A stretch of DNA of 49,644 nt from Eubacteriales bacterium (GCA_045587785.1 JAZNDA010000008.1:1-49644), one strand, 5' to 3'. Shown: positions 8,389-29,763, numbered from the stretch's first letter. Notes: generated from the sequence alone by a model not told the origin. Numbers and translations are program-made.

Positions 8389-8463
8389 TGGCACCCGCAA
8401 CAGGAATCGAACCTGTAACTACCCCTTAGGAGGGGGCTATTATATCCATTTAACTATGCAGGC
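8389..8463 (-). tRNA. tRNA-Arg (anticodon CCU), CCA-encoded
   Basis: The reverse complement GCCTGCATAGTTAAATGGATATAATAGCCCCCTCCTAAGGGGTAGTTACAGGTTCGATTCCTGTTGCGGGTGCCA folds as a cloverleaf. Acceptor stem GCCTGCA/TGCGGGT, anticodon loop CUCCUAA, T-arm ACAGG-TTCGATT-CCTGT. Confidence 0.9.
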
Positions 8464-8522
8464 TTATTATTCAATTTTTGATTTTTCCGACTGCGGCATA
8501 TGCCGCAGTCAGAATTAGTTCT

Positions 8523-8720
8523 CTACGTTATGGAAAACAAAACGATGATCTTCCGAAGAATACAGTCATCCTTCGCAGTCTTCACCAAGCGCGTGCCGCC
8601 GATATGACCGTCACCGTAAGGCTCAACGGAAACAATATCACCCTCAAGACAGAATTTCTCGGCTTCAGTCATTCGCAGTGGGTGCCCCCTTGGCTTCAAA
8701 TTATGTGCCTTCCACTCCAT
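8523..8720 (-). pseudogene. N-terminal remnant of an APH/NahK-like sugar or aminoglycoside kinase
   Basis: MEWKAHNL...FCLEGDIVSVEPYGDGHIGGTRLVKTAKDDCILRK resembles the N-terminal nucleotide-binding strand region (xEPYGDGHINxTYxV) of N-acetylhexosamine-1-kinase-like phosphotransferases. It stops after about 65 aa, whereas the family is about 350 aa. Confidence 0.45.
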
Positions 8721-8866
8721 ATTAGTATAACACATTTTTCCAAAATGTCAATCCCTTAAAATTGACAAGACGTTATTTTTTTCACAAAATCTTCCACCGT
8801 TTTGCTATTTTTTCAGATTCTTGCAAAAATCCGACAATTCCACGACGGTTAATTTTTTAAAAACAC

Positions 8867-8895
8867 TTGACAACCCGAAAAAAATGTGATAGAAT
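8867..8895 (+). promoter_or_regulatory. Sigma-A promoter of the Leu T-box operon
   Basis: TTGACA (8867-8872), 17-nt spacer, TGaTAGAAT (8887-8895). Confidence 0.65.
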
Positions 8896-8915
8896 ATAAA
8901 ATCATTATGAAAAAA

Positions 8916-9170
8916 GGCTGTGAAGGAATTAAGTCCAATCCCTCTTCGGCATAGAGAACCGTCGGTTGGTGTAAGACGGTGCGAACGGATCCGGTCTGTC
9001 TCACTCCCGAGCTGAACCGCAGAAATCAGTAAGCGGTTACGGTTGGCACCGTTATTCTGCCGAGGATTTGTCAGAATCCTTAAGAGGTGATTGCCATGGG
9101 GCAATAACCGGGGTGGTACCGCGAAAGTATTTTCGTTCCCGAAACAGCTGGGCTGTTTCGGGGATTTTTT
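8916..9170 (+). promoter_or_regulatory. T-box leader, specifier CUC (Leu) at 9000-9002
   Basis: Stem I: base GGC/GCU, a 6-nt GA-motif bulge, AG bulge AGAGA (8953-8957), and distal hairpin ACCGTC-GGTTGGTGTAA-GACGGT. Specifier loop reads ...UGU-CUC-A then CUCC-CGA-GCU. T-box core GGTGGTACCGCG at 9112-9123. Terminator CCCGAAACAGC-TGG-GCTGTTTCGGG plus T6 at 9138-9170. Confidence 0.9.
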
Positions 9171-9188
9171 ATTCGAAAGGAGAACAAC

Positions 9189-10568
9189 ATGAAACACATT
9201 GTCATTGCAGACAGCACGCTTTGCAGAGAAGGAAGCGTATTCAGCTTCAAAGAAAGAATAGAGATGGCACGTCAGCTTGAGCGACTTGCCGTTGACGTCA
9301 TTGAACTACCCGAGATCAAGATCGGAAAAACCGATATTTTGCTTGTCAAGACCGTTTCGTCCTTTGTCAAAAAGAGTATCCTTTCGGTAGGTGCAGGTCT
9401 TACCGAGCAAAGCGTTACGGATGCCGCTACGGCACTCTCGCACGCCGAAAAGCCCAGGATCCGCATTGAGCTTCCCATGTCCCCCGTCGGCATGGAATAC
9501 GTATGCCACAAAAAGCCCGAGAAAATGCTGGCGTGGATCTCCCACATCGTAGCTATGGCAAAATCTCTTTGCCCCGACGTGGAATTTTGTGCGATAGATG
9601 CCACGAGAGCCGAGGCTGATTTTCTTGCCTCTGCCATAGAGGCGGCAGAAAAGGCGGGCGCAACAAGTCTTGCCGTTTGTGACAGTGCCGCCGAGCTTCT
9701 TCCCGACGACTTCGCGGCATTTGCCGAGGGCGTGATCAAAAACACCGCGCTTCCCCTCTCCGTACATTGCGACAACAAAAACGGGCTTGCCTGTGCCGAG
9801 GCGATCTTGGCGATCGGCAAGGGCGCGTCGGGCGTCAAGACCGCCGTGGGCGGAGACGGCATTCCGCTTGAGGTATTTTCCAATATGGTAAGAAACTGCG
9901 GAACAAGATATGACTTTTGCTCCTCGATCCGCTATACCGAGCTTCACAGGATCATAGGACAGATCAGCTGGATCTCGGACAATGCGAAAAACGAAAAGAC
10001 ATTGACCGCCCTTGTGGGCAAGGAAAAGGACGATTGGTATCTGGATGACGCGGATGACAAAGAGGCGGTTGCGGCAGCCATCGCAAAACTTGGATATGAT
10101 CTTAGCGACGAGGATATTACCAAGGTATTTGAGGAGTTTTTACGTGTTGCCGCCAAGAAAAAGGTGGGTGCCAAGGAGCTGGAAGCCATTGTGGCAAGCG
10201 TAGCATTGCAGTGCCCTGCCACCTACGTGCTTGAAAATTACGTGATCAACAACGGCAATATTATCTCGTCAAGCGCACAGATCACCCTTGTCAAGGGAGA
10301 CACCCGTCTGCAGGGCGTTTGCATCGGCGACGGTCCCGTGGATGCGTCCTTCCGCGCCGTGGAGCAGATCATCGGCCACCATTACGAACTGGACGATTTC
10401 CAGATCCAGGCGGTCACACAGGGCAAGGAGGCTATGGGCTCGGCACTGGTTCGCCTGCGCTTTGGCGGCAAGCTGTATTCGGGCAACGGCATCTCCACCG
10501 ACATCATCGGTGCTGCCATCCGCGCATATCTCGGTGCGGTCAACAAAATCGTATATGAGGAGGCATGA
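9189..10568 (+). CDS. LeuA-like protein: diverged DRE-TIM (HMGL-like) domain plus LeuA C-terminal allosteric/dimerisation domain
   Basis: The N-terminal domain aligns with 2-isopropylmalate/citramalate synthases, but its motifs are altered (DSTLCREGS for DTTLRDGEQ, HCD for HxH). The C-terminus GDGPVDASFRAVEQIIGH...GKEAMGSALVRLRFGGKLYSGNGISTDIIGAAIRAYLGAVNK is a clear LeuA_dimer domain. Confidence 0.8.
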   Translation: MKHIVIADSTLCREGSVFSFKERIEMARQLERLAVDVIELPEIKIGKTDILLVKTVSSFVKKSILSVGAGLTEQSVTDAATALSHAEKPRIRIELPMSPVGMEYVCHKKPEKMLAWISHIVAMAKSLCPDVEFCAIDATRAEADFLASAIEAAEKAGATSLAVCDSAAELLPDDFAAFAEGVIKNTALPLSVHCDNKNGLACAEAILAIGKGASGVKTAVGGDGIPLEVFSNMVRNCGTRYDFCSSIRYTELHRIIGQISWISDNAKNEKTLTALVGKEKDDWYLDDADDKEAVAAAIAKLGYDLSDEDITKVFEEFLRVAAKKKVGAKELEAIVASVALQCPATYVLENYVINNGNIISSSAQITLVKGDTRLQGVCIGDGPVDASFRAVEQIIGHHYELDDFQIQAVTQGKEAMGSALVRLRFGGKLYSGNGISTDIIGAAIRAYLGAVNKIVYEEA

Positions 10569-13084
10569 GCATGAAGCTTTCTTTTTCAACCAAAGGTTGG
10601 CATGGGCTTGGCTTTGATGAATTTTGCGACATGGCGGAAAACGTCAAATTTCAAGGCATTGAGCTTCACAATATCTATAATGAACTGTTTACCGACAAGG
10701 ACGGTGCATTTCACGATTATACCGCCGCAGCCACGCGCAGACGTCTTTATGAGCGTGGGCTGAGCATCCCCTGTATTGACGTGATCGGCGACATTGCCGA
10801 CGGCGAAAAGGCAGATGCTACAGTGGCAGAGATTGAAAAATGCATGGAAATTGCAGGCAATCTGCAAATTCCGTACGTCCGTCTGCGCGCTTCGGCGGCA
10901 GAGGACAGCGAAAAGGCAGTTGCCGCCACCGAAGCATTGCTCTCTCGCGTGCTTCCCATGGCTGAGCAAAACAAGATCACTCTTTTGGTGGAGACCGCGG
11001 GACTTTTCTGCCGCACCGCCCTGCTTCGCGGATTGCTTGACGGCTTTGCGTCCGATAATCTGGGCGCGCTTTGGGACATGTCGGCATCCTTCTTCGAAAG
11101 CGGAGAGACCCCCGAGCAGATCATTCAAAACCTTGGCGCCTACGTCCGCCACGTGCATATCAGCGATGCCGAAATGGTGGATGGTGAGCTTCGCCACTGT
11201 CTGATGGGCGAGGGCGCACTGCCCATCGCCGATATGATGTTGGCACTCCGCTCTGTCAATTACGACGGCTTTATCTCGCTTGTCTGGGCACCCGAATGGT
11301 GCGACGAGCTGGACGATATGGAGATCATCTTTGCCCAATTCGTTAACTATATGAAGCAATTTGGCAACACTTCACGCAATCAGAAGGCGCTTTACTACAA
11401 CCGTGCTCATACGGGTAAATATATTTGGGAAAAGGACCGTTTGATCGATGCCACCTTCTCTGAGGTTCTTGACCGCATGGTGGAGGAATTCCCCGACCAG
11501 TACGCCTTCAAATATACCACGCTGGACTACACACGTACCTACAGCGAGTTCCGCGATGACGTGGACACCTTCGCCCGAGCACTCATTGCGCTTGGCGTTA
11601 AGGCGGGCACACACGTGGCAGTGTGGGCATCCAACGTACCCCAGTGGTACATTGCCTTCTGGGCTACCGTCAAGCTTGGCGCGGTGCTTGTGACGGTCAA
11701 CACCGCGTATAAAATTCACGAGGCGGAATATCTGTTTAAGCAGTCAGATACGCATACACTCATTATGACCGAAGGAGCAAAAGACTGCAAATACGGCGAT
11801 ATCATTGCCGAGCTTTGTCCCGAGCTTGCAAGCAACAAGACGGGCAGTCCGCTTCACTCCAAACGCTTGCCCTTCCTGCGCAACGTCATTACCGTCGGCT
11901 TCCGTCAAAAGGGCTGTATGGACTGGAACGAGGCACTTGAGCACGCCTCGCAGGTGCCGCTGGAAGAAGTACACCGCATGGCGGCACTGGTCAACAAGGA
12001 TGACGTGTGCAACATGCAGTACACCTCGGGTACCACGGGATTCCCCAAGGGCGTTATGCTTACTCACTACAACGTTGTTAACAACGGAAAATATATTGGC
12101 GACCATATGGATCTGTCCACCGCGGACCGCATGATGATTCAAGTGCCGATGTTCCATTGCTTTGGCATGGTGCTTTCGATGACAGCATCGATGACGCACG
12201 GTACAACCATGCTGCCGTTGCCGTATTTCTCCCCGAAGCCTGCGCTTGCCTGCATTCACAATGAGCATATCACTGCCTTTAACGGCGTACCCACAATGTT
12301 CATTGCCATGATGCAGCATGAGGATTTTGAAAAGACCGACTTCTCGTACATGCGCATTGGTATTATGGCAGGTTCCAACTGTCCCGCGGACCTTATGAAG
12401 GAGGCGGCGACGGGTCGTATGCAAATGAAGGAGATCGTTTCGGTATACGGACAGACCGAGGCTTCGCCCGGATGTACGATGAGCAGCTACTACGATTCGC
12501 TTGCGGTGCGTACCGAGACCGTTGGAAGTGCCTTCGCAAATGTCGAGTGTAAGGTCATCGATCCCGAAACGGGCGAGGAATGCCCCGACGGTGTCAACGG
12601 CGAGTTTGTGGCACGCGGCTACAATATCATGAAGGGCTACTACAAGATGCCGATGGGCACTGCCTCCGCCATCGACGCTGAGGGTTGGCTTCATACGGGC
12701 GACCTTGCATGCCGTACCCCCGAGGGCAACTATCTGATCACGGGAAGACTGAAGGACATGATCATCCGCGGCGGCGAAAACATATACCCCAAGGAGATCG
12801 AGGAGTTTATTTATACCTGCCCGAAGGTACGCGACGTACAGGTCATCGGCGTGCCCGACGAGAAGTACGGCGAGGAGATCATGGCTTGCATCATTCTCAA
12901 AGAGGGTGAGGAAATGACGGCAGAGGAAATGAAGGCATATATCGCCGCCAACATGGCAAGACATAAGGTGCCGAGATATATCGATTTCGTCAAATCCTTC
13001 CCCATGAACGCGGCAGGAAAGATCCTCAAGTACAAGATGCGCGAGGAAGCCGTGGAAAAGCTGGGACTTCAAAAAGCAAAATAA
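10565..13084 (+). CDS. Fusion protein: xylose-isomerase-like TIM barrel (sugar phosphate isomerase/epimerase family) + AMP-dependent acyl-CoA synthetase/ligase
   Basis: The first ~270 aa carry AP_endonuc_2-type motifs (LLVETAG, ALWDM, VRHVHISD, ISLVWAPEW). From about aa 300 the adenylate-forming motifs appear (MQYTSGTTGFPKGVMLTH, YGQTEASP, GWLHTGDLA, GENIYPKEIE, AAGKILK). The ATGA start overlaps the upstream stop. Confidence 0.85.
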   Translation: MSMKLSFSTKGWHGLGFDEFCDMAENVKFQGIELHNIYNELFTDKDGAFHDYTAAATRRRLYERGLSIPCIDVIGDIADGEKADATVAEIEKCMEIAGNLQIPYVRLRASAAEDSEKAVAATEALLSRVLPMAEQNKITLLVETAGLFCRTALLRGLLDGFASDNLGALWDMSASFFESGETPEQIIQNLGAYVRHVHISDAEMVDGELRHCLMGEGALPIADMMLALRSVNYDGFISLVWAPEWCDELDDMEIIFAQFVNYMKQFGNTSRNQKALYYNRAHTGKYIWEKDRLIDATFSEVLDRMVEEFPDQYAFKYTTLDYTRTYSEFRDDVDTFARALIALGVKAGTHVAVWASNVPQWYIAFWATVKLGAVLVTVNTAYKIHEAEYLFKQSDTHTLIMTEGAKDCKYGDIIAELCPELASNKTGSPLHSKRLPFLRNVITVGFRQKGCMDWNEALEHASQVPLEEVHRMAALVNKDDVCNMQYTSGTTGFPKGVMLTHYNVVNNGKYIGDHMDLSTADRMMIQVPMFHCFGMVLSMTASMTHGTTMLPLPYFSPKPALACIHNEHITAFNGVPTMFIAMMQHEDFEKTDFSYMRIGIMAGSNCPADLMKEAATGRMQMKEIVSVYGQTEASPGCTMSSYYDSLAVRTETVGSAFANVECKVIDPETGEECPDGVNGEFVARGYNIMKGYYKMPMGTASAIDAEGWLHTGDLACRTPEGNYLITGRLKDMIIRGGENIYPKEIEEFIYTCPKVRDVQVIGVPDEKYGEEIMACIILKEGEEMTAEEMKAYIAANMARHKVPRYIDFVKSFPMNAAGKILKYKMREEAVEKLGLQKAK

Positions 13085-13199
13085 CCCCCTCACCGAGTAA
13101 AATCTTTATATTTTGATAGTCGTAGCAAAACCATAGAGGTTCTGTTATAGCCGAAGAGAATCGAACCCACCAAAAAACTCTTGCAAACTGAAAACCAAT

Positions 13200-13231
13200 G
13201 CGGATCCCCATAAGTTCGGGGATCCGCTTTT
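13200..13231 (+). terminator. Rho-independent terminator ending the Leu T-box operon
   Basis: GCGGATCCCC-ATAAGTTC-GGGGATCCGC followed by TTTTG. Confidence 0.8.
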
Positions 13232-13287
13232 GTCATGAACCCTCCCACTGCCCATCTCATATATTGGAAGTGAAGGAGGTGAAAATC

Positions 13288-13665
13288 ATGAATTGCCAAA
13301 GAAATACCTGCGTATGGCTGTCGATCATTGTCGGCGTTGTGGCGGGCATACTGCTCGGCGTACTCTACTCGCAAGGTCTGTTCCCCATCGGGTCGATCTT
13401 CCCGTTTTATATTGCATTCGGGTTGCTTAGCTTGCTTTTGTATCCGCTTTATGCCGCGCGCAAGGACGGCGGCTGTTTCTGCCGCTTAAAGGCACTGTTG
13501 CTGACAGCGACGATCGGCACGGTCGTCAGCGCCGCGATCGGTCAGCTGCTTCTTTTGACCACATCCGTAACCGCGACTGCCATTTTGCTGAGCTTTGCCA
13601 CACTCTTTGCCACTATCGGGGCAGTATCTCTTATCTGCCTTGCCGATTGCCATTGCAATAACTGA
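13288..13665 (+). CDS. Hypothetical 125-aa membrane protein with Cys-rich C-terminus
   Basis: ATG at 13288 follows the RBS GAAGGAGG. It has 3-4 hydrophobic helices and ends in ...CLADCHCNN. The ORF-track start at 13198 lies inside the upstream terminator and is rejected. Confidence 0.5.
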   Translation: MNCQRNTCVWLSIIVGVVAGILLGVLYSQGLFPIGSIFPFYIAFGLLSLLLYPLYAARKDGGCFCRLKALLLTATIGTVVSAAIGQLLLLTTSVTATAILLSFATLFATIGAVSLICLADCHCNN

Positions 13666-13668
13666 TCT

Positions 13669-13713
13669 CAGAGAGCCGAAAGACCGTCTATCCAAGACGG
13701 TCTTTCAGCTCTC
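13669..13713 (+). terminator. Long stem-loop, probable terminator
   Basis: AGAGAGCCGAAAGACCGTC-TATCCAA-GACGGTCTTTCAGCTCTCT, with about 18 bp paired. The U-tract is weak. Confidence 0.5.
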
Positions 13714-13747
13714 TTGTGGCTTTTCTGTATTTTTTTCGAAAAACCTC

Positions 13748-13776
13748 TTGATTTTTTCAAAAAAGTGTGATACAAT
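13748..13776 (+). promoter_or_regulatory. Sigma-A promoter for secG
   Basis: TTGATT, 17-nt spacer, TGaTACAAT. Confidence 0.6.
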
Positions 13777-13837
13777 ATACGGGCATATGAAAAAATGTGC
13801 CTTTGGCACTTAGAAATCTCATGGGAGGACCAAAAAA

Positions 13838-14080
13838 ATGACCACGATCGAATACGTTTTCGGAGGCCTGCTTCTTCTTATGGCACTCGCCCTTGTCGGT
13901 CTTGTTATGAAGCAGACGGGTAAGGATAAAAAGCTTTCGGGTGCAATCGGAGGCGGTGCGGAAACCTTCTTCGGCAATGGTAAGGCAACAAGAATAGAAA
14001 AGATTCTTTCCAGAATTACCGCTGTTATTTCCGTGCTTTTCGTTGTCTCCGTTGTTGTCATGTATATTATCGTTTCCTGA
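13838..14080 (+). CDS. secG: Preprotein translocase subunit SecG
   Basis: 80 aa with two TM helices separated by a Gly-rich loop (KKLSGAIGGGAETFFG). Confidence 0.88.
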   Translation: MTTIEYVFGGLLLLMALALVGLVMKQTGKDKKLSGAIGGGAETFFGNGKATRIEKILSRITAVISVLFVVSVVVMYIIVS

Positions 14081-14092
14081 CAAAACGAAAAA

Positions 14093-14126
14093 GAAAAACT
14101 GTCCGATGGCGGGCAGTTTTTCTTTT
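14093..14126 (+). terminator. Rho-independent terminator
   Basis: AAAAACTGTCCG-ATGG-CGGGCAGTTTTT followed by CTTTT. Confidence 0.7.
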
Positions 14127-14156
14127 CAAACACTCCCCCCGAAAGGATAGATTATC

Positions 14157-15083
14157 ATGAGCTTTGATATTGCGCTTGGGAACGTCCTTGTGACACTGTT
14201 TTATATTCTTCCCGGCTTTATTATCTGTAAAATGAAGCGCGCCTCCACCGACCATCTCTCTACGCTGTCGGGCATTCTGGTATACGTGTGCGCCCCCTGC
14301 ATGGTCATTTCGGCGCTTCTTTCGCTGGATTTCAGTATGGAGGTGCTTGCCAACATGGGATTGTTCTTTGTCATCACACTGATACTCCAGTGCGCTTTTA
14401 TGGGTATTGTATATGCAATCATCCGCAAAAAAAGCGCTGACCCCAAATACCGTCTGATGACCATAGGCATGGTGCTTGGCAACGTGGGCTTTTTCGGGCT
14501 TCCCATCGTCCGCGCGCTTTTGCCGAATAACCCCGAGGTCGCCTCATACTCGATCGTATACATCGTCACCATGAATATTTTGGTGTTTACGGTGGGCGTG
14601 TTTTGCCTTACGGGAGACAAAAAATATATGTCGATCCGCCCCGCCATCTTCAACCCCACTATATTCGGCTTTGCCATTGGCTTCCCACTCTTTATTTTGG
14701 GTGCCAAACAAATTTTGCCGAGCCTTCTGACCGACAGCATTTCCCTGCTTGGCAACATGAGCACACCGCTTTGTATGCTGATCCTTGGCATACGCCTTGC
14801 CACCGTGTCACTGCCAAAGCTGTTTGCCCGTCCGAGCGTGTACGCTATCTGCATCGGCAAGCTGCTGCTGTTTCCCCTCTTTGCCTTTTTCGCCGTCAAG
14901 TGGCTTCCCTTGCCCGAGGCGTTCAAGGCAAGTATACTCATTCTTTCGGCAACACCGTGTGCCTCGGTGGTGTTCAATCTTTCCGAGATGCACCGCGTGG
15001 ATGCCGAGCTTGCGGCAAACTGCGTTCTGCTCAGCACTCTTATGTGCTTTCTGACCATTCCCACGCTTACCCTTTTGCTTTAA
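14157..15083 (+). CDS. AEC (auxin efflux carrier) family transporter
   Basis: 308 aa, about 10 TM helices. N-terminus LFYILPGFI... and the overall pattern are typical of AEC/malate-permease-like proteins. Confidence 0.75.
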   Translation: MSFDIALGNVLVTLFYILPGFIICKMKRASTDHLSTLSGILVYVCAPCMVISALLSLDFSMEVLANMGLFFVITLILQCAFMGIVYAIIRKKSADPKYRLMTIGMVLGNVGFFGLPIVRALLPNNPEVASYSIVYIVTMNILVFTVGVFCLTGDKKYMSIRPAIFNPTIFGFAIGFPLFILGAKQILPSLLTDSISLLGNMSTPLCMLILGIRLATVSLPKLFARPSVYAICIGKLLLFPLFAFFAVKWLPLPEAFKASILILSATPCASVVFNLSEMHRVDAELAANCVLLSTLMCFLTIPTLTLLL

Positions 15084-15157: not shown

Positions 15158-15168
15158 ACTGTGGATAA

Positions 15169-15404
15169 TGCAAGGATGAAGTTTGCGCTTTCATACCCGT
15201 ACCGCAGAGAAGGTGCCTTTGGCTGTGAGCACCCGTACGAATGAAATGCCGCGTTTCGCTTCGGAGCAGATTCCGTGAGGCATTGGCATGTAGCGGAATA
15301 CGGTGACACCGTTATATGTCTAAAAAGTGTTGGCTTTGGCTGAAAATACGGGTGGTACCGCGAGTGCTTTTTGCACCTCGTCCTGTTGTGGACGGGGGCT
15401 TTTT
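15169..15404 (+). promoter_or_regulatory. T-box leader, specifier UUC (Phe) at 15255-15257
   Basis: Stem I: base UGC/GCA, a 6-nt bulge, GAAG/CUUC, AG bulge AGAGA (15206-15210), distal loop CTTTGGCTGTGA. Specifier reads U-UUC-G then CUUC-GGA-GCA. T-box core GGTGGTACCGCG at 15351-15362. Terminator CCTCGTCC-TGTTGT-GGACGGGG plus T5. Confidence 0.9.
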
Positions 15405-15448: not shown

Positions 15449-16462
15449 ATGAAAGAAAAACTGGAAAAGATCCTTGATGACGCGATTGCTGGGATCGGCA
15501 ACGACAATGCAGACCTTGAGCAGATCCGCATCCAGTACCTTGGTAAAAAGGGTGAGCTGACAGCGGTTCTGCGCGGCATGGGACAGCTTACACCCGAGGA
15601 GCGTCCCGTCATCGGTCAGCTTGCCAATGACGTACGCGCAAAAATTGAAGAAGCTCTTGACAAGGCAGGAGAGACCCTTAAGGCAAAACAGCTTGAGCAA
15701 AAGCTGAAGGACGAAAAATTGGACGTCACCATGCCCACCCAGGCCATCGGAAACGGTCACCATCATCCTCTCTCCCTCACACAGAGAGAAATGGAGGAGA
15801 TCTTTATGGGACTTGGCTTTTCCATCATCGAAGGTCCCGAGGTCGAGTACGATTACTATAACTTCCAAGCACTCAATATCCCCGAAAATCACCCTGCACG
15901 CGATACGCAGGATACCTTCTACATCACCGACAACATCCTTCTGCGCTCACAGACCTCTCCCGTTCAGGTGCACGCCATGGAAACAAGACGTCCACCCCTG
16001 AGAGTAGTCTCGCCCGGACGCGTATACCGTTCCGACGCGCTTGACGCCACCCACTCGCCTCTGTTCCACCAGTTCGAGGGTCTTGTGGTAGATAAAGGCA
16101 TTACCATGGGCGACCTGAAGGGCGTTCTGGATGCGTTTGCCAAGAAAATGTTCGGCGAGCAGACACGCACCCGTTTCCGCCCCCATCACTTCCCCTTTAC
16201 CGAGCCGTCAGCAGAGGTTGACGTTTCTTGCTTTGCGTGCGGCGGTAAGGGCTGCAGACTTTGCAAGAACGAAGGATGGATCGAAATTCTCGGTGCGGGC
16301 ATGGTTCATCCGTTCGTACTTTCCAACTGCGGCATCGACCCCGAGGAGTATTCGGGCTTTGCCTTCGGTATGGGCATTGAGCGTGTTGCCATGATCAAAT
16401 ACGGCATCGATGACATCCGTCTGTTCTACGAGAACAATCAGAGATTCCTCGAACAGTTCTGA
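15449..16462 (+). CDS. pheS: Phenylalanine--tRNA ligase alpha subunit
   Basis: Class II aaRS motifs are present ([40 protein letters not shown]). Confidence 0.97.
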
Positions 16463-16479
16463 GAAAGGAGATAAGGCAT

Positions 16480-18867
16480 ATGAATCTTTCTATGAAATGG
16501 TTGGCTGACTTTGTAGACGTCAGCGATATCGATATCAAGGACTACTGCGACCGCATGACCGACACAGGCTCCAAGGTCGAGGGCTACGAGCTGCTCGGCA
16601 GTGACATTGAAAACGTTGTGGTTGCCAAGATCCTTTCCATCAAGCCCCACGAAAACAGCGATCACCTTCTGGTCTGCCAGATGGAGGTGGGCAAGGATGC
16701 GCCCGTACAGATCGTGACGGGAGCGCAAAATATTTTTGAAGGTGCCATTGTCCCTGCGGCTCTGCCCGTGGCAAAGCTCCCCGGCGGCGTGGTCATCAAG
16801 TCGGGCAAGCTCCGCGGCGTGCCGTCCGACGGCATGCTGTGCTCCATGGGCGAGCTGGGACTTACCTCTCACGATATGCCGGGTAAGGCAGAGGACGGCA
16901 TCCTGATCCTCGATGAGGAATACGCCAACAAGATCGGTATGGATATCCGCGAGGCTTTGATGCTTGACGATAAGGTGGTGGAATTTGAGATCACCTCCAA
17001 CCGTCCCGACTGCCTGTCGGTGATCGGTCTTGCACGCGAGACCGCTGTGTCCTTTGACCGGGGGTACAATATCCCCACCCCCACTGTCAAGGGCTCGGGA
17101 GACGATATCAAAAATCATCTGAGCGTTAAGATCGACGCACCCGACCTTTGCCTGCGCTATGCCGCAAAGGTGGTCAAAAACGTGCGCATTGCGCCCTCTC
17201 CGCTGTGGCTCAGAATGAGACTGCGCGCCGCAGGCGTCCGTCCCATCAATAACATCGTAGATATCACCAACTACGTCATGTTGGAATACGGTCAGCCCAT
17301 GCATGCGTTTGTTTACCAGTGCCTTGACAGCGCGGAGATCATTGTCAGACGCGCAAAAGACGGCGAGTGCTTCAAATCGCTTGACGATACCGATCATACG
17401 CTTGACAGCTCCATGCTGGTCATCGCCGACAAAAACAAGGCTTGCGCACTGGCGGGCGTTATGGGCGGTGCCAACAGCGAGATCACTGAAAAGACCTCCA
17501 CCGTGGTCTTTGAGAGTGCTTGCTTTGACGGCGCATCGGTGCGCGTGACCGCCAAGAAAAACGGCATGAGAACCGAATCCTCGGCACGCTTCGAAAAGGG
17601 ACTTGACAGCGAAAACTGCATGGCAGGTCTTATGCGCGCATGTGAGCTTGTGGAACTTCTTGACGCGGGCGACGTGGTAGATGGTGTGATCGATGTTTAC
17701 CCCGGCAAAAAGGATGCCACCACCCTTCCCTTGGATGCTGAGCGCATCAACCGTTTCCTTGGTGTTGATCTCACCGAAGATTATATGAAGCAGGTGCTTA
17801 TGGGCCTTGAATGTAAGATCGAAGGCAACACGATCACCGTTCCCTCCTTCCGCGCAGACCTTGGCTGTATGAATGACATCGCCGAGGAGATCATACGCAT
17901 CTACGGCTACAACAAGATCGAAGCCACCCGTATCAAGGCGGAGACCACCGAGGGCGGCAGAACGCCCAAGCAAAAGCTCAAGGTGGACGTTACCGATCTG
18001 CTTTGCAATCTGGGTCTCAACGAAATTCAGACCTATTCCTTCATCAGCCCCAAGTATTACGATAAGATCCGTATGGCAGCAGATGACCACAGACGCAAGT
18101 CCATCGTCATTTCCAATCCCCTTGGTGAGGACACAAGCATCATGAGAACCACGGCACTTCCCTCCATGCTGGAGGTAGTTGCCAGAAACAACAATCTCAG
18201 CAATGAAAACGTGTCCCTGTTCGAAATGGCAAGCACTTATATTCCGCACGAGAACATGGACGAGCTTCCCGATGAGGGCGTTTCGCTGACAGTGGCTATG
18301 TACGGCGACACCGACTTCTACAAGCTCAAGAGCGTATGCGAGGCGGTTCTGGCTGCGGCAGGCATTTACGGAGCAACGTACACCGCCTACGGCGAGGACA
18401 ACGCGTTCCATCCCGGACGCTGTGCCACAGTCACTGCAAACGGCAAAACACTAGCAACACTTGGTCAGATCCATCCTCTGACCGCCGAGAATTACGGCTT
18501 TGATATGCCCGTATATGCTGCTGTGATCGACTTTGACGCACTGTTCGAAGCATCCAACCAAACCAAGCACTATACCCCCCTGCCTAAGTACCCTGCCTCG
18601 GTGCGCGACTTCTCGTTCGTTTGCGAGGAAGCACTGGAAGTCGGCAGTATCTTTGAGTCGGTTCGCCGCGCAGGCGGAAAGCTGGTAGAGGACGTCAAGC
18701 TGTTTGACATTTACCGCGGCGCGCAGGTCGGCGAGGGCAAAAAGAGCGTTTCCATCCGTGTCACGCTTCGCGCCACCGACCGAACACTTACCGTGGAAGA
18801 AGCCGAAAAGACCAGCCGCAAGATCCTTGGTGACCTTGAGCACAAGCTTGGCATCACGTTGAGGTAA
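16480..18867 (+). CDS. pheT: Phenylalanine--tRNA ligase beta subunit
   Basis: 795 aa with an N-terminal tRNA-binding (EMAP/OB) domain, B3/4 and B5 domains, and a C-terminal FDX-ACB domain. Confidence 0.96.
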   Translation: MNLSMKWLADFVDVSDIDIKDYCDRMTDTGSKVEGYELLGSDIENVVVAKILSIKPHENSDHLLVCQMEVGKDAPVQIVTGAQNIFEGAIVPAALPVAKLPGGVVIKSGKLRGVPSDGMLCSMGELGLTSHDMPGKAEDGILILDEEYANKIGMDIREALMLDDKVVEFEITSNRPDCLSVIGLARETAVSFDRGYNIPTPTVKGSGDDIKNHLSVKIDAPDLCLRYAAKVVKNVRIAPSPLWLRMRLRAAGVRPINNIVDITNYVMLEYGQPMHAFVYQCLDSAEIIVRRAKDGECFKSLDDTDHTLDSSMLVIADKNKACALAGVMGGANSEITEKTSTVVFESACFDGASVRVTAKKNGMRTESSARFEKGLDSENCMAGLMRACELVELLDAGDVVDGVIDVYPGKKDATTLPLDAERINRFLGVDLTEDYMKQVLMGLECKIEGNTITVPSFRADLGCMNDIAEEIIRIYGYNKIEATRIKAETTEGGRTPKQKLKVDVTDLLCNLGLNEIQTYSFISPKYYDKIRMAADDHRRKSIVISNPLGEDTSIMRTTALPSMLEVVARNNNLSNENVSLFEMASTYIPHENMDELPDEGVSLTVAMYGDTDFYKLKSVCEAVLAAAGIYGATYTAYGEDNAFHPGRCATVTANGKTLATLGQIHPLTAENYGFDMPVYAAVIDFDALFEASNQTKHYTPLPKYPASVRDFSFVCEEALEVGSIFESVRRAGGKLVEDVKLFDIYRGAQVGEGKKSVSIRVTLRATDRTLTVEEAEKTSRKILGDLEHKLGITLR

Positions 18868-23897: not shown

Positions 23898-23913
23898 GAT
23901 TCATGTTTTCAAA

Positions 23914-24176
23914 GGCGTCGACGAAGAGGTCGCAGCGAGAGTTCCCCAAAGAGAGATGGCGGTAGGTGCGAGCCATCGGGAATGCGCCGCGTTTGTAGCT
24001 TCCGAGCCGAGAGGAAGAAAGCAGTTTTGCCGTAGACCCTCTCCGTGATTGCTGCGTCAAGGCATAGGAATTGATAGATTCCAAGAGTGGCGGACTTCCG
24101 CAATTTGAGTGGTACCGCGGGTGTAGTATTTTTACACTCGTCTCAAAGTCATTTCACTTTGGGACGGGTGTTTTTT
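23914..24176 (+). promoter_or_regulatory. T-box leader, specifier GUA (Val) at 23995-23997
   Basis: Stem I helices: GGC/GCC, GAAG/CUUC, CGCAGCG/CGCCGCG, TTCCC/GGGAA, GATGGC/GCCATC. AG bulge AGAGA at 23950-23954 and distal loop GGTAGGTGCGA. Specifier loop reads UUU-GUA-G then CUUC-CGA-GCC. T-box core GAGTGGTACCGCGG at 24107-24120. A 15-bp terminator stem at 24135-24170 is followed by T6. Confidence 0.9.
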
Positions 24177-24199: not shown

Positions 24200-26488
24200 A
24201 TGGAAAAGATTACAGGACTTGATTTTAAGATCCAAGAAATGGCGGCAAGAATCCGCGAGCTTCGTGAGATCGAAGGCATCTCTATCGAGGATATGGCGGC
24301 AAAGACAGGCGTTACGCCCACAGAATATGCCGACTGCGAAAGCGGAAAAAGCGATCTGAACTTTACTTTCATTTATCGCTGTGCCCTTGTGTTCGGTGTC
24401 AACGTCACTGATATTATCGAAGGCTACAGCCCCAATCTGCGCTCGTACACCGTAACGCGCGCAGGCGGCGGTCAGCACATTGCGCAGGCGCACGGTATGA
24501 CCTATTATAACCTTGCCTACGCGTTTCAGAACCGTATTGCAGAGCCGCTTTACGTACGAAGCGTTTACGATGAGGGTGCACAGCACCGCGACATCGAGCT
24601 TACCTCCCACGCAGGTCAGGAGTGTGACATCGTGGTTGAGGGACAGCTGATGGTGCAGGTAGGCGACCATAAAGAGATCTTAGGTCCCGGCGACAGCATG
24701 TACTACAACAGCGAAACACCCCACGGCATGATCGCCGTTGGCGGCAAGGACTGTATCTTCTACGCCATCGTTCTCAACCCCACGGGCGAGCCCATCCCCG
24801 AGCTTGTCACGCCCAAGGCGATCGCAAGCACCAGCCAGATCAAATTCGATACCAAGGACCGAATTTACAAGAAATATATTGACGTTACCAAGAACGACAA
24901 AGGCACGCCCACGTCGATCACCTTTAAAAACACGGAGAATTTCAACTTTGCGTTTGACCTTGTGGATGCGCTTGCCGAGCGCGAGCCCGAAAAGCTGGCA
25001 ATGCTCCATATTTCGAAGGATCATACCGAACGCCGTTTCACCTTCCTTGACATAAAGAAGGCATCCGCACAGTGCGCCAACTACTTTAAGTCGCTGGGCA
25101 TCAAGAAGGGCGATAAGGTCATGCTGGTTCTCAAGCGTCACTATCAGTTCTGGTTTGCTATGCTGGGTCTGAATAAGCTGGGTGCCATCGCAATTCCTGC
25201 GCCCAATCAGCTTCAGGAGCATGACTTTGAGTACCGCTTCCGTACCGCAGGCATCAGTGCGATCCTCTGTACGGCAGACGGTGACACAGCATCTCAGATC
25301 GAGGGTGCCGCCAAGGATATTCCCGAACTTAAGCACCGCATCATGGTTGGTGGCGAGCGTGAGGGATGGCGTAATTTCGACGAGGAATACACGCTTTACA
25401 GCACGCGCTATAACCGCACGGAGGACGCCCCGAGCGGCGACGATCTGCTGCTGATGTTCTTCACATCGGGCACGTCTGGCTATCCCAAGATCGCGGCACA
25501 TAATCACAAATATCCGCTTGGTCACTTCCATACGGCAAAATATTGGCACAACGTGGACCCCGACGGACTTCACTTCACCATTTCGGACACGGGATGGGCA
25601 AAGTCCATGTGGGGTAAGCTCTACGGTCAGTGGCTGTGTGAGGCTCCAATCTTTGTTTACGATTTCGACCGTTTTGATGCCGCCGACATTCTTCCGCTGT
25701 TTGCCAAATATCAGATCACCACGTTCTGCGCACCGCCCACCATGCTCCGCATGATGGTCAAGCAGGATATCTCCAAGTATGACCTTTCCTCCGTGCGTCA
25801 CATGACCACGGCAGGCGAGGCACTGAACCCCGAGGTCTACCGCCAGTTTGAAAAGGCAACGGGTCTGCAGATCCTTGAAGGCTTTGGTCAGACCGAAAGC
25901 ACCATGATCATTGGTAATATGCGCGGCGCTTCGCATAAGATCGGCTCTATGGGTAAGCCCGCTCCCATTTACAAGGTCAGCCTTGTGGATACCGAGGGCA
26001 ACCCCGTTCCCGACGGTGAAACGGGCGAGATCGTCATCGACGTTCGTGACGGCGCACCCTGCGGTTTGTTCACGGGCTACTACGGCGACGAAGAAAAGAC
26101 CAAAGAGGTATGGCATGACGGCTTCTATCATACGGGCGACACCGCATGGCGCGATGAGGACGGCTTCTATTGGTACGTCGGACGTGTGGATGACGTCATC
26201 AAGTCCTCGGGCTACCGCATCGGTCCCTTTGAGATCGAGAGCGTTATTATGGAGCTTCCGTACGTCCTTGAATGTGGCGTTTCCGCCGCACCCGATGAGG
26301 TCAGAGGTCAGATCGTCAAGGCAAGCATCGTGCTGACCAAGGGCACAGAGGGCACTGAGGAGCTCAAAAAAGAAATTCAAAACTACGTCAAGGAGCATAC
26401 CGCTCCCTACAAATACCCCCGTCTTGTGGTGTTCCGCGATGAGCTTCCCAAAACCACAAGCGGTAAGATCCAGAGAAACAAGCTATGA
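24200..26488 (+). CDS. Fusion: XRE-type HTH + cupin domain + medium-chain acyl-CoA synthetase (ACSM/MACS clade)
   Basis: The start is set at ATG 24200, after the T-box terminator, with RBS GGAAAGGTAGG. HTH region: AARIRELREIEGISIEDMAAKTGVTPTEYADCESGK. Cupin region: HAGQECDIVVEGQL...GDSMYYNSETPHG. ACS motifs: FFTSGTSGYPK, EGFGQTES, YHTGDTAWRDEDGFYWYVGRVDDVIKSSGYRIGPFEIES, SGKIQR. Confidence 0.85.
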   Translation: MEKITGLDFKIQEMAARIRELREIEGISIEDMAAKTGVTPTEYADCESGKSDLNFTFIYRCALVFGVNVTDIIEGYSPNLRSYTVTRAGGGQHIAQAHGMTYYNLAYAFQNRIAEPLYVRSVYDEGAQHRDIELTSHAGQECDIVVEGQLMVQVGDHKEILGPGDSMYYNSETPHGMIAVGGKDCIFYAIVLNPTGEPIPELVTPKAIASTSQIKFDTKDRIYKKYIDVTKNDKGTPTSITFKNTENFNFAFDLVDALAEREPEKLAMLHISKDHTERRFTFLDIKKASAQCANYFKSLGIKKGDKVMLVLKRHYQFWFAMLGLNKLGAIAIPAPNQLQEHDFEYRFRTAGISAILCTADGDTASQIEGAAKDIPELKHRIMVGGEREGWRNFDEEYTLYSTRYNRTEDAPSGDDLLLMFFTSGTSGYPKIAAHNHKYPLGHFHTAKYWHNVDPDGLHFTISDTGWAKSMWGKLYGQWLCEAPIFVYDFDRFDAADILPLFAKYQITTFCAPPTMLRMMVKQDISKYDLSSVRHMTTAGEALNPEVYRQFEKATGLQILEGFGQTESTMIIGNMRGASHKIGSMGKPAPIYKVSLVDTEGNPVPDGETGEIVIDVRDGAPCGLFTGYYGDEEKTKEVWHDGFYHTGDTAWRDEDGFYWYVGRVDDVIKSSGYRIGPFEIESVIMELPYVLECGVSAAPDEVRGQIVKASIVLTKGTEGTEELKKEIQNYVKEHTAPYKYPRLVVFRDELPKTTSGKIQRNKL

Positions 26489-27153
26489 GAAACTATAAAC
26501 GTATCACGCTTGTTTGCGGTCATTACGGAAGCGGAAAAACAAACGTCGCTGTCAACATGGCGTTTGACCTTAAAAAACAGTTTGATAAGGTCGCGCTTGC
26601 CGATCTGGACATCGTCAATCCCTATTTCCGTGCCAAGGACAGCCAAAAACAGCTTCTTGAGGCAGGCATCCGCTTTATCGGATCGGAATACGCCAACTCC
26701 AACGTGGATATTCCCGCGCTTCCGCAGGATATGTACGCCATCACCGATGATAAGACCATGAAATGTATTCTGGATATCGGCGGAGATGACCGCGGTGCAT
26801 TAGCACTTGGGCGTTTGGCTCCTGCCATTCTTGAAGAAAACGATTACGAGATGCTGATGGTGATCAACCGTTCCCGTCCGCTCTCGCACGACGCCCCCTC
26901 GACCATCGAGATCATGAGAGAGATCGAAACGGCAGGCGGCATCCGCTTCACGGGGCTTATCAACAACACCAATCTCGGCGTGGAAACCACCGTGGAGGAT
27001 ATCCTTGATTCTATCCCCTATGCAAAAGAGGTCTCGGCACTGTCGGGACTGCCCCTTGTGGCAACCTCCGTACGGCAGGACCTTGCCCCCGCCCTTGAAG
27101 GAAAAGCGGAAAACATCTTCCCTCTTGTCCTTCATCAATTTCAAAACATTTGA
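26485..27153 (+). CDS. P-loop NTPase (SIMIBI/CooC-MinD-like), function unknown
   Basis: Walker A GHYGSGKTN, followed by LADLDIVNPYFR. 222 aa. The ATGA start overlaps the ACS stop. Confidence 0.6.
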   Translation: MRNYKRITLVCGHYGSGKTNVAVNMAFDLKKQFDKVALADLDIVNPYFRAKDSQKQLLEAGIRFIGSEYANSNVDIPALPQDMYAITDDKTMKCILDIGGDDRGALALGRLAPAILEENDYEMLMVINRSRPLSHDAPSTIEIMREIETAGGIRFTGLINNTNLGVETTVEDILDSIPYAKEVSALSGLPLVATSVRQDLAPALEGKAENIFPLVLHQFQNI

Positions 27154-27179
27154 TTTTACACAGAAAGGAAAAATAAATC

Positions 27180-27386
27180 ATGGCAAAACTGACATTCAAA
27201 ACCGATTTCTGCAAGGGCTGTGGACTTTGCGTGGATGTTTGTCCCAAAAAGGTTCTCAGACTTGCCACAGACAAGATCAACAAAAAAGGACACCATCCCG
27301 CCGAGGCGATCGACGAGAGCGCTTGCGTTGGCTGTGCATCCTGCGCAATGATGTGTCCCGACTGCATTATCAAAGTGGAAAGGTGA
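27180..27386 (+). CDS. 2-oxoacid:ferredoxin oxidoreductase delta subunit (2x[4Fe-4S] ferredoxin)
   Basis: CKGCGLCVDVCP and CVGCASCAMMCP motifs. 68 aa. Confidence 0.85.
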   Translation: MAKLTFKTDFCKGCGLCVDVCPKKVLRLATDKINKKGHHPAEAIDESACVGCASCAMMCPDCIIKVER

Positions 27387-27395
27387 GTGAAAACA

Positions 27396-28463
27396 ATGTC
27401 TGAAAAAGTACTTATGAAAGGTAACGAAGCCATTGCCGAGGCGGCGATCATTGCAGGCTGCCGTCATTACTTCGGTTACCCCATTACCCCCCAGACCGAG
27501 ATCGCCGCATATATGGCAAAGAGAATGCCCAAGATCGGCGGTACGTTCCTTCAGGCAGAGAGTGAGATCGCTGCCATCAATATGGTTTACGGCGTTGCCG
27601 CTGCAGGCTACCGCGTTATGACTTCCTCCTCCAGCCCCGGTGTATCGCTTAAGGGCGAAGGTCTATCTTACCTCGCGGGTGCGGATCTGCCTTCTTTCAT
27701 TGTCAACGTACAGCGCGGAGGCCCCGGTCTTGGCGGCATCCAACCCAGCCAGTCGGACTACTTCCAGGCAACCAGAGGCGGCGGACACGGTGACTATCAC
27801 ATGATCGTGCTTGCTCCCGCATCGGTACAGGAGATGGCAGAGCTTACCGTTCGCGGCTTCGAGCTTGCCGATACCTACCGCATGACCACCATGGTGCTTG
27901 CAGACGGTACCATGGGACAGATGATGGAGCCCGTTTCGCTTGACTTTGACGTAAAGCCTCAGATCGAAAAGCCCTGGGCAACCACGGGCACGGGAATGAA
28001 ACGTCCCCACAATATCGTCAACTCGCTCTTCCTTGACCCCGAGGAGCTTGAGAAATTTAACTTTGACCGCTATAAGCGTTATGAGCAGATCGAGAAGAAC
28101 GAGGTACTCTATGAGGAATATCTCATGGACGATGCCGAGATCGCCATCGTTGCCTTCGGTATTGCCGCACGTGTGGCTAAGAGTGCCATCAACGAGGCAA
28201 GAACCCTTGGCATCAAGGCAGGTATGATCCGTCCGATCACCCTTTGGCCCTTCCCCAAGGCTCCCTTCAAGAAGGCCGCCGGCAAAGTAAAGCAGTACAT
28301 ATCGGTTGAGCTTTCCATGGGTCAGATGATCGAGGACGTAAAGCTTGCAAGCGAATGTCGCGTGCCTGTCACGCTTTGCAATCGCGTGGGCGGTATGATC
28401 CCCTCTCCCGCACAGGTGCTTGAAAGCATCAAGAATGCCGCAAAGAACGGAGGTAACAACTAA
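27396..28463 (+). CDS. 2-oxoacid:ferredoxin oxidoreductase alpha subunit
   Basis: LMKGNEAIAEAAIIAGCRHYFGYPITPQTEI is a typical KorA/VorA N-terminus. ATG 27396 lies 9 nt after AGGTGA. An in-frame GTG at 27387 is an alternative start. Confidence 0.85.
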   Translation: MSEKVLMKGNEAIAEAAIIAGCRHYFGYPITPQTEIAAYMAKRMPKIGGTFLQAESEIAAINMVYGVAAAGYRVMTSSSSPGVSLKGEGLSYLAGADLPSFIVNVQRGGPGLGGIQPSQSDYFQATRGGGHGDYHMIVLAPASVQEMAELTVRGFELADTYRMTTMVLADGTMGQMMEPVSLDFDVKPQIEKPWATTGTGMKRPHNIVNSLFLDPEELEKFNFDRYKRYEQIEKNEVLYEEYLMDDAEIAIVAFGIAARVAKSAINEARTLGIKAGMIRPITLWPFPKAPFKKAAGKVKQYISVELSMGQMIEDVKLASECRVPVTLCNRVGGMIPSPAQVLESIKNAAKNGGNN

Positions 28464-29218
28464 TGGCTGTAGTATTTGATAAACCCCATGCACTTGCCGA
28501 TGTGCCGCTTCATTACTGCCCCGGATGCACCCACGGTATCGTTCACCGCTTGGTTGCCGAGGTTCTGGATGAGCTTGAGATCGAGGGCAAAACCATCGGT
28601 ATCGCCCCCGTCGGTTGCTCGGTTATGGCATACAACTATTTTAACTGCGATATGATCGAAGCCGCTCACGGCCGTGCGCCCGCTGTGGCTACGGGTGTTA
28701 AGCGTGCCAATCCCGAAAACGTGGTCTTCACCTATCAGGGTGACGGCGACCTTGCGTCCATCGGTATGGCGGAGACCGTCCATGCCGCGGCAAGAAACGA
28801 AAACATCACCATCATCTTTATCAACAACGCGATCTACGGTATGACGGGCGGTCAGATGGCGCCCACGTCGCTTGTAGGTCAGGTCACACAGACCTCTCCT
28901 TACGGCAGAGATCCCAAGGCGTGCGGCTATCCCATCCGTGTGTGCGAAATGCTTTCGGAGCTGGAGGGCCCCGAGTATCTGGCTCGTGTGACCGTTAACA
29001 CCGTACCGAGGATCCGCGAGGCAAAAAAAGCAATCAAGAAGGCATTCCAGAATCAGCTTGAGGGCAAGGGCTTCTCACTGGTAGAAGTGGTCTCCACCTG
29101 CCCCACCAACTGGGGTATGACACCAAAGGCGGCTCTCCAGTGGATCGACGAGAAGATGCTTCCCCAGTATCCGCTCGGCGTATATAAGGACAGAACCGCA
29201 AAGGAGGAAACAAAATGA
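28463..29218 (+). CDS. 2-oxoacid:ferredoxin oxidoreductase beta subunit (TPP-binding)
   Basis: YCPGCTHGI plus the TPP motif GDGDLASIGMAE...NNAIYGMTGGQ. TAATG overlap with the alpha subunit. Confidence 0.88.
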   Translation: MAVVFDKPHALADVPLHYCPGCTHGIVHRLVAEVLDELEIEGKTIGIAPVGCSVMAYNYFNCDMIEAAHGRAPAVATGVKRANPENVVFTYQGDGDLASIGMAETVHAAARNENITIIFINNAIYGMTGGQMAPTSLVGQVTQTSPYGRDPKACGYPIRVCEMLSELEGPEYLARVTVNTVPRIREAKKAIKKAFQNQLEGKGFSLVEVVSTCPTNWGMTPKAALQWIDEKMLPQYPLGVYKDRTAKEETK

Positions 29219-29748: not shown

Positions 29749-29763
29749 TCGGAGGAAATAAAA

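Follow-up and report, generated by a model that had tools for sequence, protein, structure and literature searches.

A leucine T-box precedes a degenerate LeuA-like protein and a TIM barrel-acyl-CoA ligase fusion in gut Clostridia: a probable link to a neighboring 2-oxoisovalerate oxidoreductase operon

INTRODUCTION

Why would a bacterium place under the control of leucine supply a pair of genes of which neither encodes a recognizable enzyme of the leucine pathway? The question is raised by positions 8867 to 13231 of a 49,644-nucleotide stretch of DNA from a member of the Eubacteriales (GCA_045587785.1, JAZNDA010000008.1:1-49644; the whole stretch is referred to here as the window). There, a T-box leader with a leucine specifier precedes an open reading frame (ORF1) for a degenerate relative of 2-isopropylmalate synthase (LeuA) and a second one (ORF2) for a TIM barrel fused to an acyl-coenzyme A (acyl-CoA) ligase. 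An earlier note, made by a model from the sequence alone, had pointed to this unit, and the computational analysis reported here followed it up. We conclude that the unit is very probably an acyl-CoA ligase operon that is induced by leucine limitation and functionally tied to a nearby operon for 2-oxoisovalerate:ferredoxin oxidoreductase (VOR) and a branched-chain aminotransferase (BCAT). How the ligase might serve leucine synthesis, and what the LeuA-like protein might do beside it, are questions to which we give more guarded answers below.

RESULTS

The leucine T-box leader and the operon terminator

The unit begins with a sigma-70-type promoter on the + strand (8867-8895; TTGACA-17-TAGAAT, with a TG-extended -10 element), which has 11 of 12 hexamer matches and is the top-scoring promoter-like site on that strand within 8460-14200. 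It is followed by a T-box leader (8911-9143, +) that aligns to the full length of the Rfam model RF00230 (model positions 1-219) with 105.5 bits, against a gathering score of 93 (E = 2.3e-22). The cmscan alignment places CUC, a leucine codon, at the specifier position (9000-9002), and the next base (9003) is an A, i.e., a purine. The T-box core GUGGUACCGCG (9113-9123; the longer stretch GGGUGGUACCGCG covers 9111-9123) includes the UGGU bulge. An intrinsic terminator follows (9135-9173, +), made up of a hairpin with a 14-bp stem (9135-9165) and a U-run. Its hairpin overlaps the 3' strand of the antiterminator, the T-box model ending only at 9143, and the two structures are therefore mutually exclusive. 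Antitermination by uncharged tRNA-Leu is predicted from this arrangement. At the other end, the operon is closed by a strong bidirectional hairpin (13200-13231, +; stem 13200-13227, then TTTTGT). The earlier note had described the promoter, a canonical T-box with specifier CUC, the following A and the UGGU bulge, and a terminator after ORF2, and all of these were borne out.

Conservation of the unit

A genome scan limited to one genome per species returned at least 590 loci with relatives of ORF1, 80 of which were fetched. The carriers are nearly all metagenome-assembled genomes of Acutalibacteraceae, Oscillospiraceae, or "Clostridia," recovered from the guts of ruminants and humans. Of the 79 loci that could be assessed, 75 have a T-box core upstream of ORF1, and ORF2 comes immediately after ORF1 in every locus that extends past ORF1 (78/78), a coupling that is kept down to 50% identity. 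Full T-boxes were recognized by Rfam (111-132 bits) in seven of seven diverse loci, including the most distant one, at 50% identity. The specifier is CUC in 71 loci, the window included, and CUG in 2, and one insertion-bearing locus was not readable; every readable specifier is thus a leucine codon. The relatives therefore support the leucine control that had been proposed for the window. None of the observations that the earlier note had named as contrary to its proposal, namely, a non-leucine specifier, a pair usually found without a T-box and in unrelated contexts, and a ligase activity unrelated to branched-chain substrates, turned up in the sequence data.

In the four loci that lack the leucine T-box (L002, L007, L010, and L031), the ORF1/ORF2 pair stands immediately behind a BCAT gene, and the pair may be read through from the valine-controlled operon described below. 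The same four loci share a conserved GC-rich hairpin (GGTCCCGGAGTCGG...CCGACCCCGGG) between BCAT and ORF1, about 120 nt before ORF1.

The LeuA-like protein

ORF1 (9189-10568, +; 459 amino acids) is a pseudo-2-isopropylmalate synthase that consists of a degenerate HMGL-like TIM barrel (PF00682, E = 4.7e-31) and a LeuA_dimer domain at approximately residues 300-459 (PF08502, E = 1.1e-27). It falls below every NCBIfam LeuA equivalog cutoff (the top model, NF002086, gives 272 bits against a required 532), and its relatives are annotated by NCBI as "hypothetical protein." When ORF1 was aligned to the LeuA proteins of Neisseria meningitidis (3rmj) and Escherichia coli, the active site proved to be extensively altered. 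RDGEQ and GERAGN are gone, the Glu of cEDA is substituted, HxH has become HCD, and a 27-residue stretch bearing HSSGIHQDG (the His-bearing linker, subdomain I) is missing. The former active-site positions also vary across 78 members of the ORF1 family, the first His of HxH being represented by K, R, S, or H. To judge from these residues, ORF1 is a LeuA paralogue that is no longer able to catalyze the Claisen condensation, in line with the altered catalytic motifs that had been remarked on before.

The regulatory domain is the most conserved part of the protein, with a mean conservation of 85% versus 68% for the barrel. Its GDGPxDA loop and G417 are invariant. G417 aligns with G462 of E. coli LeuA, and G462D is the change that has been used to abolish leucine feedback in that enzyme (PMC6345581). 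A PDB sequence search with the regulatory domain returned nothing useful. The earlier suggestion that the LeuA-like protein acts as a regulator is supported, at the level of sequence, by this combination of lost catalytic residues, a LeuA_dimer domain conserved above the rest, and a retained GDGPxDA loop and G462-equivalent glycine.

The loss of all LeuA catalytic features could also be read in a simpler way. In Firmicutes, a T-box in front of leuA is a frequent ancestral gene order, and ORF1 might be a leuA gene decaying behind an old T-box, with ORF2 having landed downstream and no function shared between the two. We consider this highly improbable. The ORF1 reading frame is intact in all 80 fetched loci, out of at least 590 matches, its regulatory domain is nearly invariant, and ORF2 stays tightly coupled to it down to the identity given above. 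The ratio of nonsynonymous to synonymous substitution rates (dN/dS; Nei-Gojobori method, approximate because dS is ~1) is 0.05-0.08 for the barrel and 0.02-0.03 for the regulatory domain, and we reject a decaying pseudogene because of these values.

The TIM barrel-ligase fusion

ORF2 extends from 10565 or 10571 to 13084. The ATG at 10565 overlaps the ORF1 stop codon (ATGA), and the earlier note had taken this overlap as the sign of translational coupling. The overlap exists, and the genes are indeed closely spaced, but the ATG at 10571 is probably the real start, because the spacing of the Shine-Dalgarno sequence GAGGAGG (10557-10563) fits it, the family consensus begins with MKLSFS, and the public gene call is 837 amino acids long. 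Counted from this start, 2 nt separate ORF2 from the ORF1 stop.

The N-terminal domain is a xylose-isomerase-like TIM barrel (10571-11380, +; AP_endonuc_2, PF01261, E = 1.7e-23, 84 bits versus 31.1, residues 24-241). The C-terminal domain is an AMP-forming acyl-CoA ligase of the ANL superfamily, most similar to PRK12583/ACSF2 (11435-13084, +; AMP-binding, PF00501, E = 2.4e-89; AMP-binding_C, PF13193, E = 1.4e-17). Pfam thereby confirms the domain content that the earlier note had assigned to both ORFs, and NCBI annotates the relatives of ORF2 as "AMP-binding protein." The core ligase motifs are invariant in the family: YTSGTTGFPKG, YGQTE, TGD, GRLKDMIIRGGENIYP, and the A10 Lys (motifs A3, A5, A7, A8, and A10) are the same in 40 sequences. 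In dN/dS, estimated as for ORF1 with the same approximation, the ligase gives 0.015-0.02 and the barrel 0.04-0.06, and all four domains of ORF1 and ORF2 are under strong purifying selection. Going by these motifs, the ligase is the sole clearly intact catalyst of the unit in the window.

The barrel is a different matter. Its metal site is remodeled (E143, D171, H196, and V240), and the canonical Glu-Asp-His-Glu tetrad is replaced by E-D-H-V in the window and by E-N-H-V in most relatives; the family tallies are N39/D15/H6/Q6 at position 171 and V48/E11/I7 at position 240. LWDxHH and SLEW are kept in more distant barrel relatives, both fused and stand-alone. The fused enzymes of uncharacterized chemistry announced by the earlier note are thus real as a fusion, while the case for new chemistry is weakened by the partial loss of the E-D-H-E site. 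A confident model of the N-terminal domain (predicted local distance difference test [pLDDT] score of 85) matched, in Foldseek, generic xylose-isomerase-like barrels (sugar isomerases/epimerases) with template modeling scores of 0.68-0.77 at 14-21% identity, which gave no functional lead, and a PDB sequence search with this domain yielded weak matches only, the best being MJ1311 at E = 1e-4. In the AlphaFold model of full-length ORF2 the ligase half is poor (mean pLDDT, 59.7), and its Foldseek matches are generic ANL ligases only.

The linked VOR/BCAT operon

The VOR/BCAT operon (24200-30828, +) lies 11 kb downstream of the ORF1/ORF2 unit in the window. It is preceded by a second T-box, with a GUA (Val) specifier (23909-24148, +; RF00230, 82.8 bits versus a gathering score of 93, E = 1.6e-18). 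The genes, all on the + strand, encode in order a protein in which an XRE-type helix-turn-helix (HTH) domain and a cupin domain are fused to an MbcS-like ligase (24200-26488), a MinD/CbiA-like P-loop protein (26485-27153), a 2x[4Fe-4S] ferredoxin subunit (27180-27386), VOR alpha (27387-28463; VorB model, 540 bits versus a cutoff of 399), VOR beta (28463-29218), VOR gamma (29215-29748), and BCAT (29764-30828; 485 bits versus a cutoff of 307). An acyl-CoA-forming enzyme of the MbcS type, a VOR-type oxidoreductase, and BCAT, i.e., the parts of a route from an acid to an amino acid, are thus encoded together. In most relatives this operon is found directly upstream of the T-box/ORF1/ORF2 unit and on the same strand, namely in 31 of the 44 loci whose upstream sequence reaches 5.5 kb or more and in 38 of the 60 for which it reaches 1.5 kb or more. 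The functional link to a 2-oxoacid oxidoreductase and BCAT module that the earlier note had suggested is supported by this arrangement and by the operon's own valine T-box. Among 75 metagenome relatives of the HTH-cupin ligase, 59 have a T-box core upstream, with GUA (in most) or GUC as the specifier.

Because a valine T-box heads this operon, the biosynthetic direction is implied, in which acyl-CoA and CO2 yield a 2-oxoacid that is then aminated by BCAT. The ligase of the operon scores 439 bits against the MbcS model and shares only about 25% identity with the ORF2 ligase. Characterized MbcS uses isobutyrate and 2-methylbutyrate and is poor on isovalerate (PMC10026030), and room is therefore left for a separate isovalerate ligase.

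A ligase of this kind could also serve lipids. When leucine is scarce, it might make isovaleryl-CoA or another branched acyl-CoA as a primer for iso-branched fatty acids; control by a leucine T-box would fit this as well, and MbcS, in Firmicutes the only characterized precedent for taking up and activating short branched acids, does serve fatty acid priming (PMC10026030; see also PMC11167679). The unit is kept, however, beside VOR and BCAT genes under a valine T-box, which points to amino acid supply, and a predicted subunit that binds leucine for regulation would be easiest to understand in a route that ends in leucine. Among the annotated genes of the window, none beside the unit was recognized as a fab gene. 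The conserved neighbors across the loci are limited to VOR/BCAT, an Amidohydro_2 gene (see below), and MetY/MetA, most other flanking ORFs being unannotated. We therefore regard primer supply as a rather remote alternative to the amino acid supply that we favor.

Some features of the operon deserve mention in their own right. The fusion of an XRE-type HTH domain and a cupin domain to an MbcS-like synthetase is unusual and resembles a transcription-factor-like sensor mounted on an enzyme; 249 metagenome matches were found. Its longest ORF, starting from a TTG at 24071, runs into the T-box, and the real start is probably the ATG at 24200. In about 25 loci, the MinD/CbiA-like protein is likewise encoded at this place, with the ligase gene on one side and the VOR genes on the other. 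It has only faint similarity to the Mrp/ApbC iron-sulfur carriers and may assist in maturing or assembling the oxidoreductase.

A model for isovalerate-dependent leucine synthesis

A scheme can be drawn up from these parts. When leucine is limiting, uncharged tRNA-Leu reading CUC would stabilize the antiterminator and ORF1 and ORF2 would be transcribed, a step that can be read from the leader itself. The ANL domain of ORF2 would convert a carboxylic acid, with isovalerate the likeliest candidate, to its CoA thioester. Isovaleryl-CoA would then be reductively carboxylated to 2-oxoisocaproate by the neighboring VOR, and 2-oxoisocaproate would be converted to leucine by the neighboring BCAT; synteny and the valine T-box argue for both of these steps. 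ORF1 would be a noncatalytic, leucine-binding subunit that restrains the ligase, possibly with the remodeled TIM domain of ORF2 as its docking platform. The committed step would in this way come under double leucine control, by RNA and by allostery, as LeuA does in the classical pathway.

We hold the full model, in which activated isovalerate is reductively carboxylated on the way to leucine and the pseudo-LeuA senses leucine as a regulatory subunit, to be a serious candidate that falls somewhat short of an even chance. More tentative is the broader proposition that a dead LeuA has become the allosteric leucine sensor of an isovalerate-CoA ligase, at a doubly controlled committed step of a leuABCD-independent route in a large group of uncultured Clostridia from rumen and gut.

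A usual third gene and other evidence that weighs against the model

Several observations weigh against the model. The first concerns a gene that the earlier note, in describing a two-gene unit, had overlooked. Of the 61 loci that have downstream sequence, 51 carry a gene for an Amidohydro_2 protein (PF04909, E = 4e-39) that lies 0-21 nt after ORF2 and is translationally coupled to it, and the isovalerate-to-leucine scheme assigns no role to this conserved gene. The protein, of about 268 amino acids (e.g., L008, 9887-10699), is seen across loci L003-L078 and retains HxH/H/H/D-type motifs; its nearest solved relative is the uncharacterized BB4693, followed by nonoxidative decarboxylases. Second, many polar residues on the C-terminal, catalytic face of the ORF2 barrel are invariant (E33, H35, N36, D72, R106, E143, H196, and D201), and "remodeled" fits this domain better than "dead" for that reason. 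The full E-D-H-E tetrad is kept in 11 more divergent operon-bearing loci, all of which have Amidohydro_2, and the barrel may therefore still do chemistry. Third, the model closest to the ligase is PRK12583 ("fatty acid CoA ligase family," NF009233; 634 bits, short of the cutoff of 832), and the ligase belongs to a medium-chain-type ANL clade, with YGQTE and not a Trp-gated short-chain pocket. Lastly, no ORF1-ORF2 fusion protein was seen among the relatives searched, and distant TIM barrel-ligase fusions stand without ORF1 or a T-box in the 160-270 nt of upstream sequence that they have. These distant fusions (P0300 and P0301) and a stand-alone barrel (P0303), all with short upstream DNA, showed no consistent neighborhood.

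Much of this would be explained if the ligase had another substrate and if the barrel, the Amidohydro_2 protein, and perhaps ORF1 carried out real additional chemistry in an undescribed leucine-related pathway, for example, the salvage of some other leucine-derived or leucine-yielding acid or conjugate. The Amidohydro_2 gene and the conserved barrel face keep this explanation in play. It also accords with the dN/dS of the barrels, at about 0.05, and with the fact that the TIM barrel-ligase fusion predates this operon. However, the Amidohydro_2 gene is absent from the window (no tblastn match) and from 10 other loci, although the T-box, ORF1, and ORF2 are retained in each. Most members lack two of the four canonical metal ligands, ORF1 varies freely where its active site used to be, and the unit has no enzyme for redox chemistry or C-C bond formation. 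None of the 11 loci with the full barrel tetrad has lost Amidohydro_2, versus 11 of 51 loci without the tetrad, which are small numbers. On balance we think this explanation unlikely, while according it real weight. We also considered, and rejected, a noncanonical reaction in which the three proteins would turn 2-oxoisovalerate into 2-oxoisocaproate, since the unit lacks a C-C bond-forming or redox catalyst. The reading that we prefer remains an acyl-CoA ligase operon, induced by leucine limitation, that works with VOR and BCAT.

Beyond the Amidohydro_2 gene, four loci (L036, L057, L059, and L070) have methionine genes on the same strand, encoding an O-acetylhomoserine sulfhydrylase-like protein and homoserine O-acyltransferase (HTS/MetA). 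An HTS gene (L082, 3863-4825) also lies near the distant TIM barrel-ligase fusion P0300.

Other features of the window

A tRNA-Arg(CCU) gene (8389-8463, -) separates recA from the promoter of the T-box unit. In one related locus (L069), a Gut-1 RNA (RF01706, 60.6 bits) flanks the tRNA that occupies the corresponding position, and the window gave no match to Gut-1. At the other end of the unit, an ORF for a small Cys-rich membrane protein (13198-13665, +) begins within the operon terminator, and translation probably starts at an internal Met near 13288; the protein matches no Pfam family, and nothing equivalent to it stands beside the operon in related loci. Another T-box (15164-15388, +), with a UUC (Phe) specifier, directly precedes pheS/pheT (15449-18867) and scores below the threshold (84.8 bits, E = 4e-19).

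DISCUSSION

The individual parts of this locus are all of known kinds: a T-box, an ANL ligase, a LeuA fold, and a TIM barrel. What appears to be new is their combination, in which a pseudo-LeuA and a TIM barrel-ligase fusion are placed behind a leucine T-box and beside a VOR/BCAT operon with a valine T-box. We found no description of this operon in the full-text literature searched.

Fiber-degrading rumen bacteria have long been known to use branched short-chain fatty acids as growth factors, and the same acids are given as feed additives. To our knowledge, the genes and controls by which these acids are turned into amino acids are poorly defined. The locus offers a concrete gene set, namely, a valine T-box operon (ligase, VOR, and BCAT) and a leucine T-box operon (pseudo-LeuA and TIM barrel-ligase fusion), that is shared by hundreds of genomes of uncultured Acutalibacteraceae/Oscillospiraceae of ruminant and human origin, and it makes the path from branched volatile fatty acids to amino acids in rumen and gut anaerobes directly testable. 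If the model is correct, it would provide a gene-level basis for the isovalerate requirement of rumen bacteria that has been recognized for decades. Should the pseudo-LeuA indeed be a leucine-sensing subunit, it would represent a clear new case of a pseudoenzyme by which an allosteric module has passed between pathways. This would also help to annotate a protein that is currently called hypothetical and lead to better metabolic models of amino acid auxotrophy and cross-feeding in gut communities.

Comparison with known systems

A T-box with a leucine specifier is familiar from the ilv-leu operon of Bacillus. The leader described here shares with the leucine T-boxes of Firmicutes a full Stem I, a leucine specifier followed by a purine, a core with the UGGU bulge, a competing terminator, and a first gene related to leuA. 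It differs in the genes that it precedes, which encode a dead LeuA and a TIM barrel-acyl-CoA ligase fusion in place of leucine-pathway enzymes. With LeuA itself, ORF1 has in common the HMGL-like barrel, the LeuA_dimer domain, the GxGPxDA motif, and the Gly at the position of E. coli G462, whereas the metal ligands, the catalytic Arg and Glu, GERAGN, and the His-bearing subdomain I are absent.

The closest functional parallel to the proposed role of ORF2 is MbcS of Staphylococcus aureus, which carries out the AMP-forming activation of external branched short-chain acids (PMC10026030). ORF2, in contrast, falls into a different ANL clade (PRK12583-like), has a TIM barrel at its N terminus, and is under T-box control. 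Its proposed substrate, isovalerate, is moreover the acid that MbcS handles poorly.

At the level of the pathway, the conversion of isovalerate to leucine by reductive carboxylation was reportedly established in rumen bacteria by Allison and co-workers in the 1960s. Our locus resembles that route in that an acyl-CoA-forming enzyme, a VOR-type oxidoreductase, and BCAT are encoded together in rumen and hindgut Clostridia. It differs in its amino-acid-specific T-boxes, its pseudo-LeuA, and the gene set as a whole, to which we found no tie for the rumen route.

For the regulatory subunit, the nearest analogy is provided by HisZ, a dead paralogue of histidyl-tRNA synthetase (HisRS) that regulates HisG, the ATP-phosphoribosyltransferase. 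The protein families are unrelated, and the ORF1-ORF2 complex is a prediction. The proposed principle, however, is the same: a dead paralogue drawn from the same amino acid system would sense the end product as a subunit of the committed enzyme.

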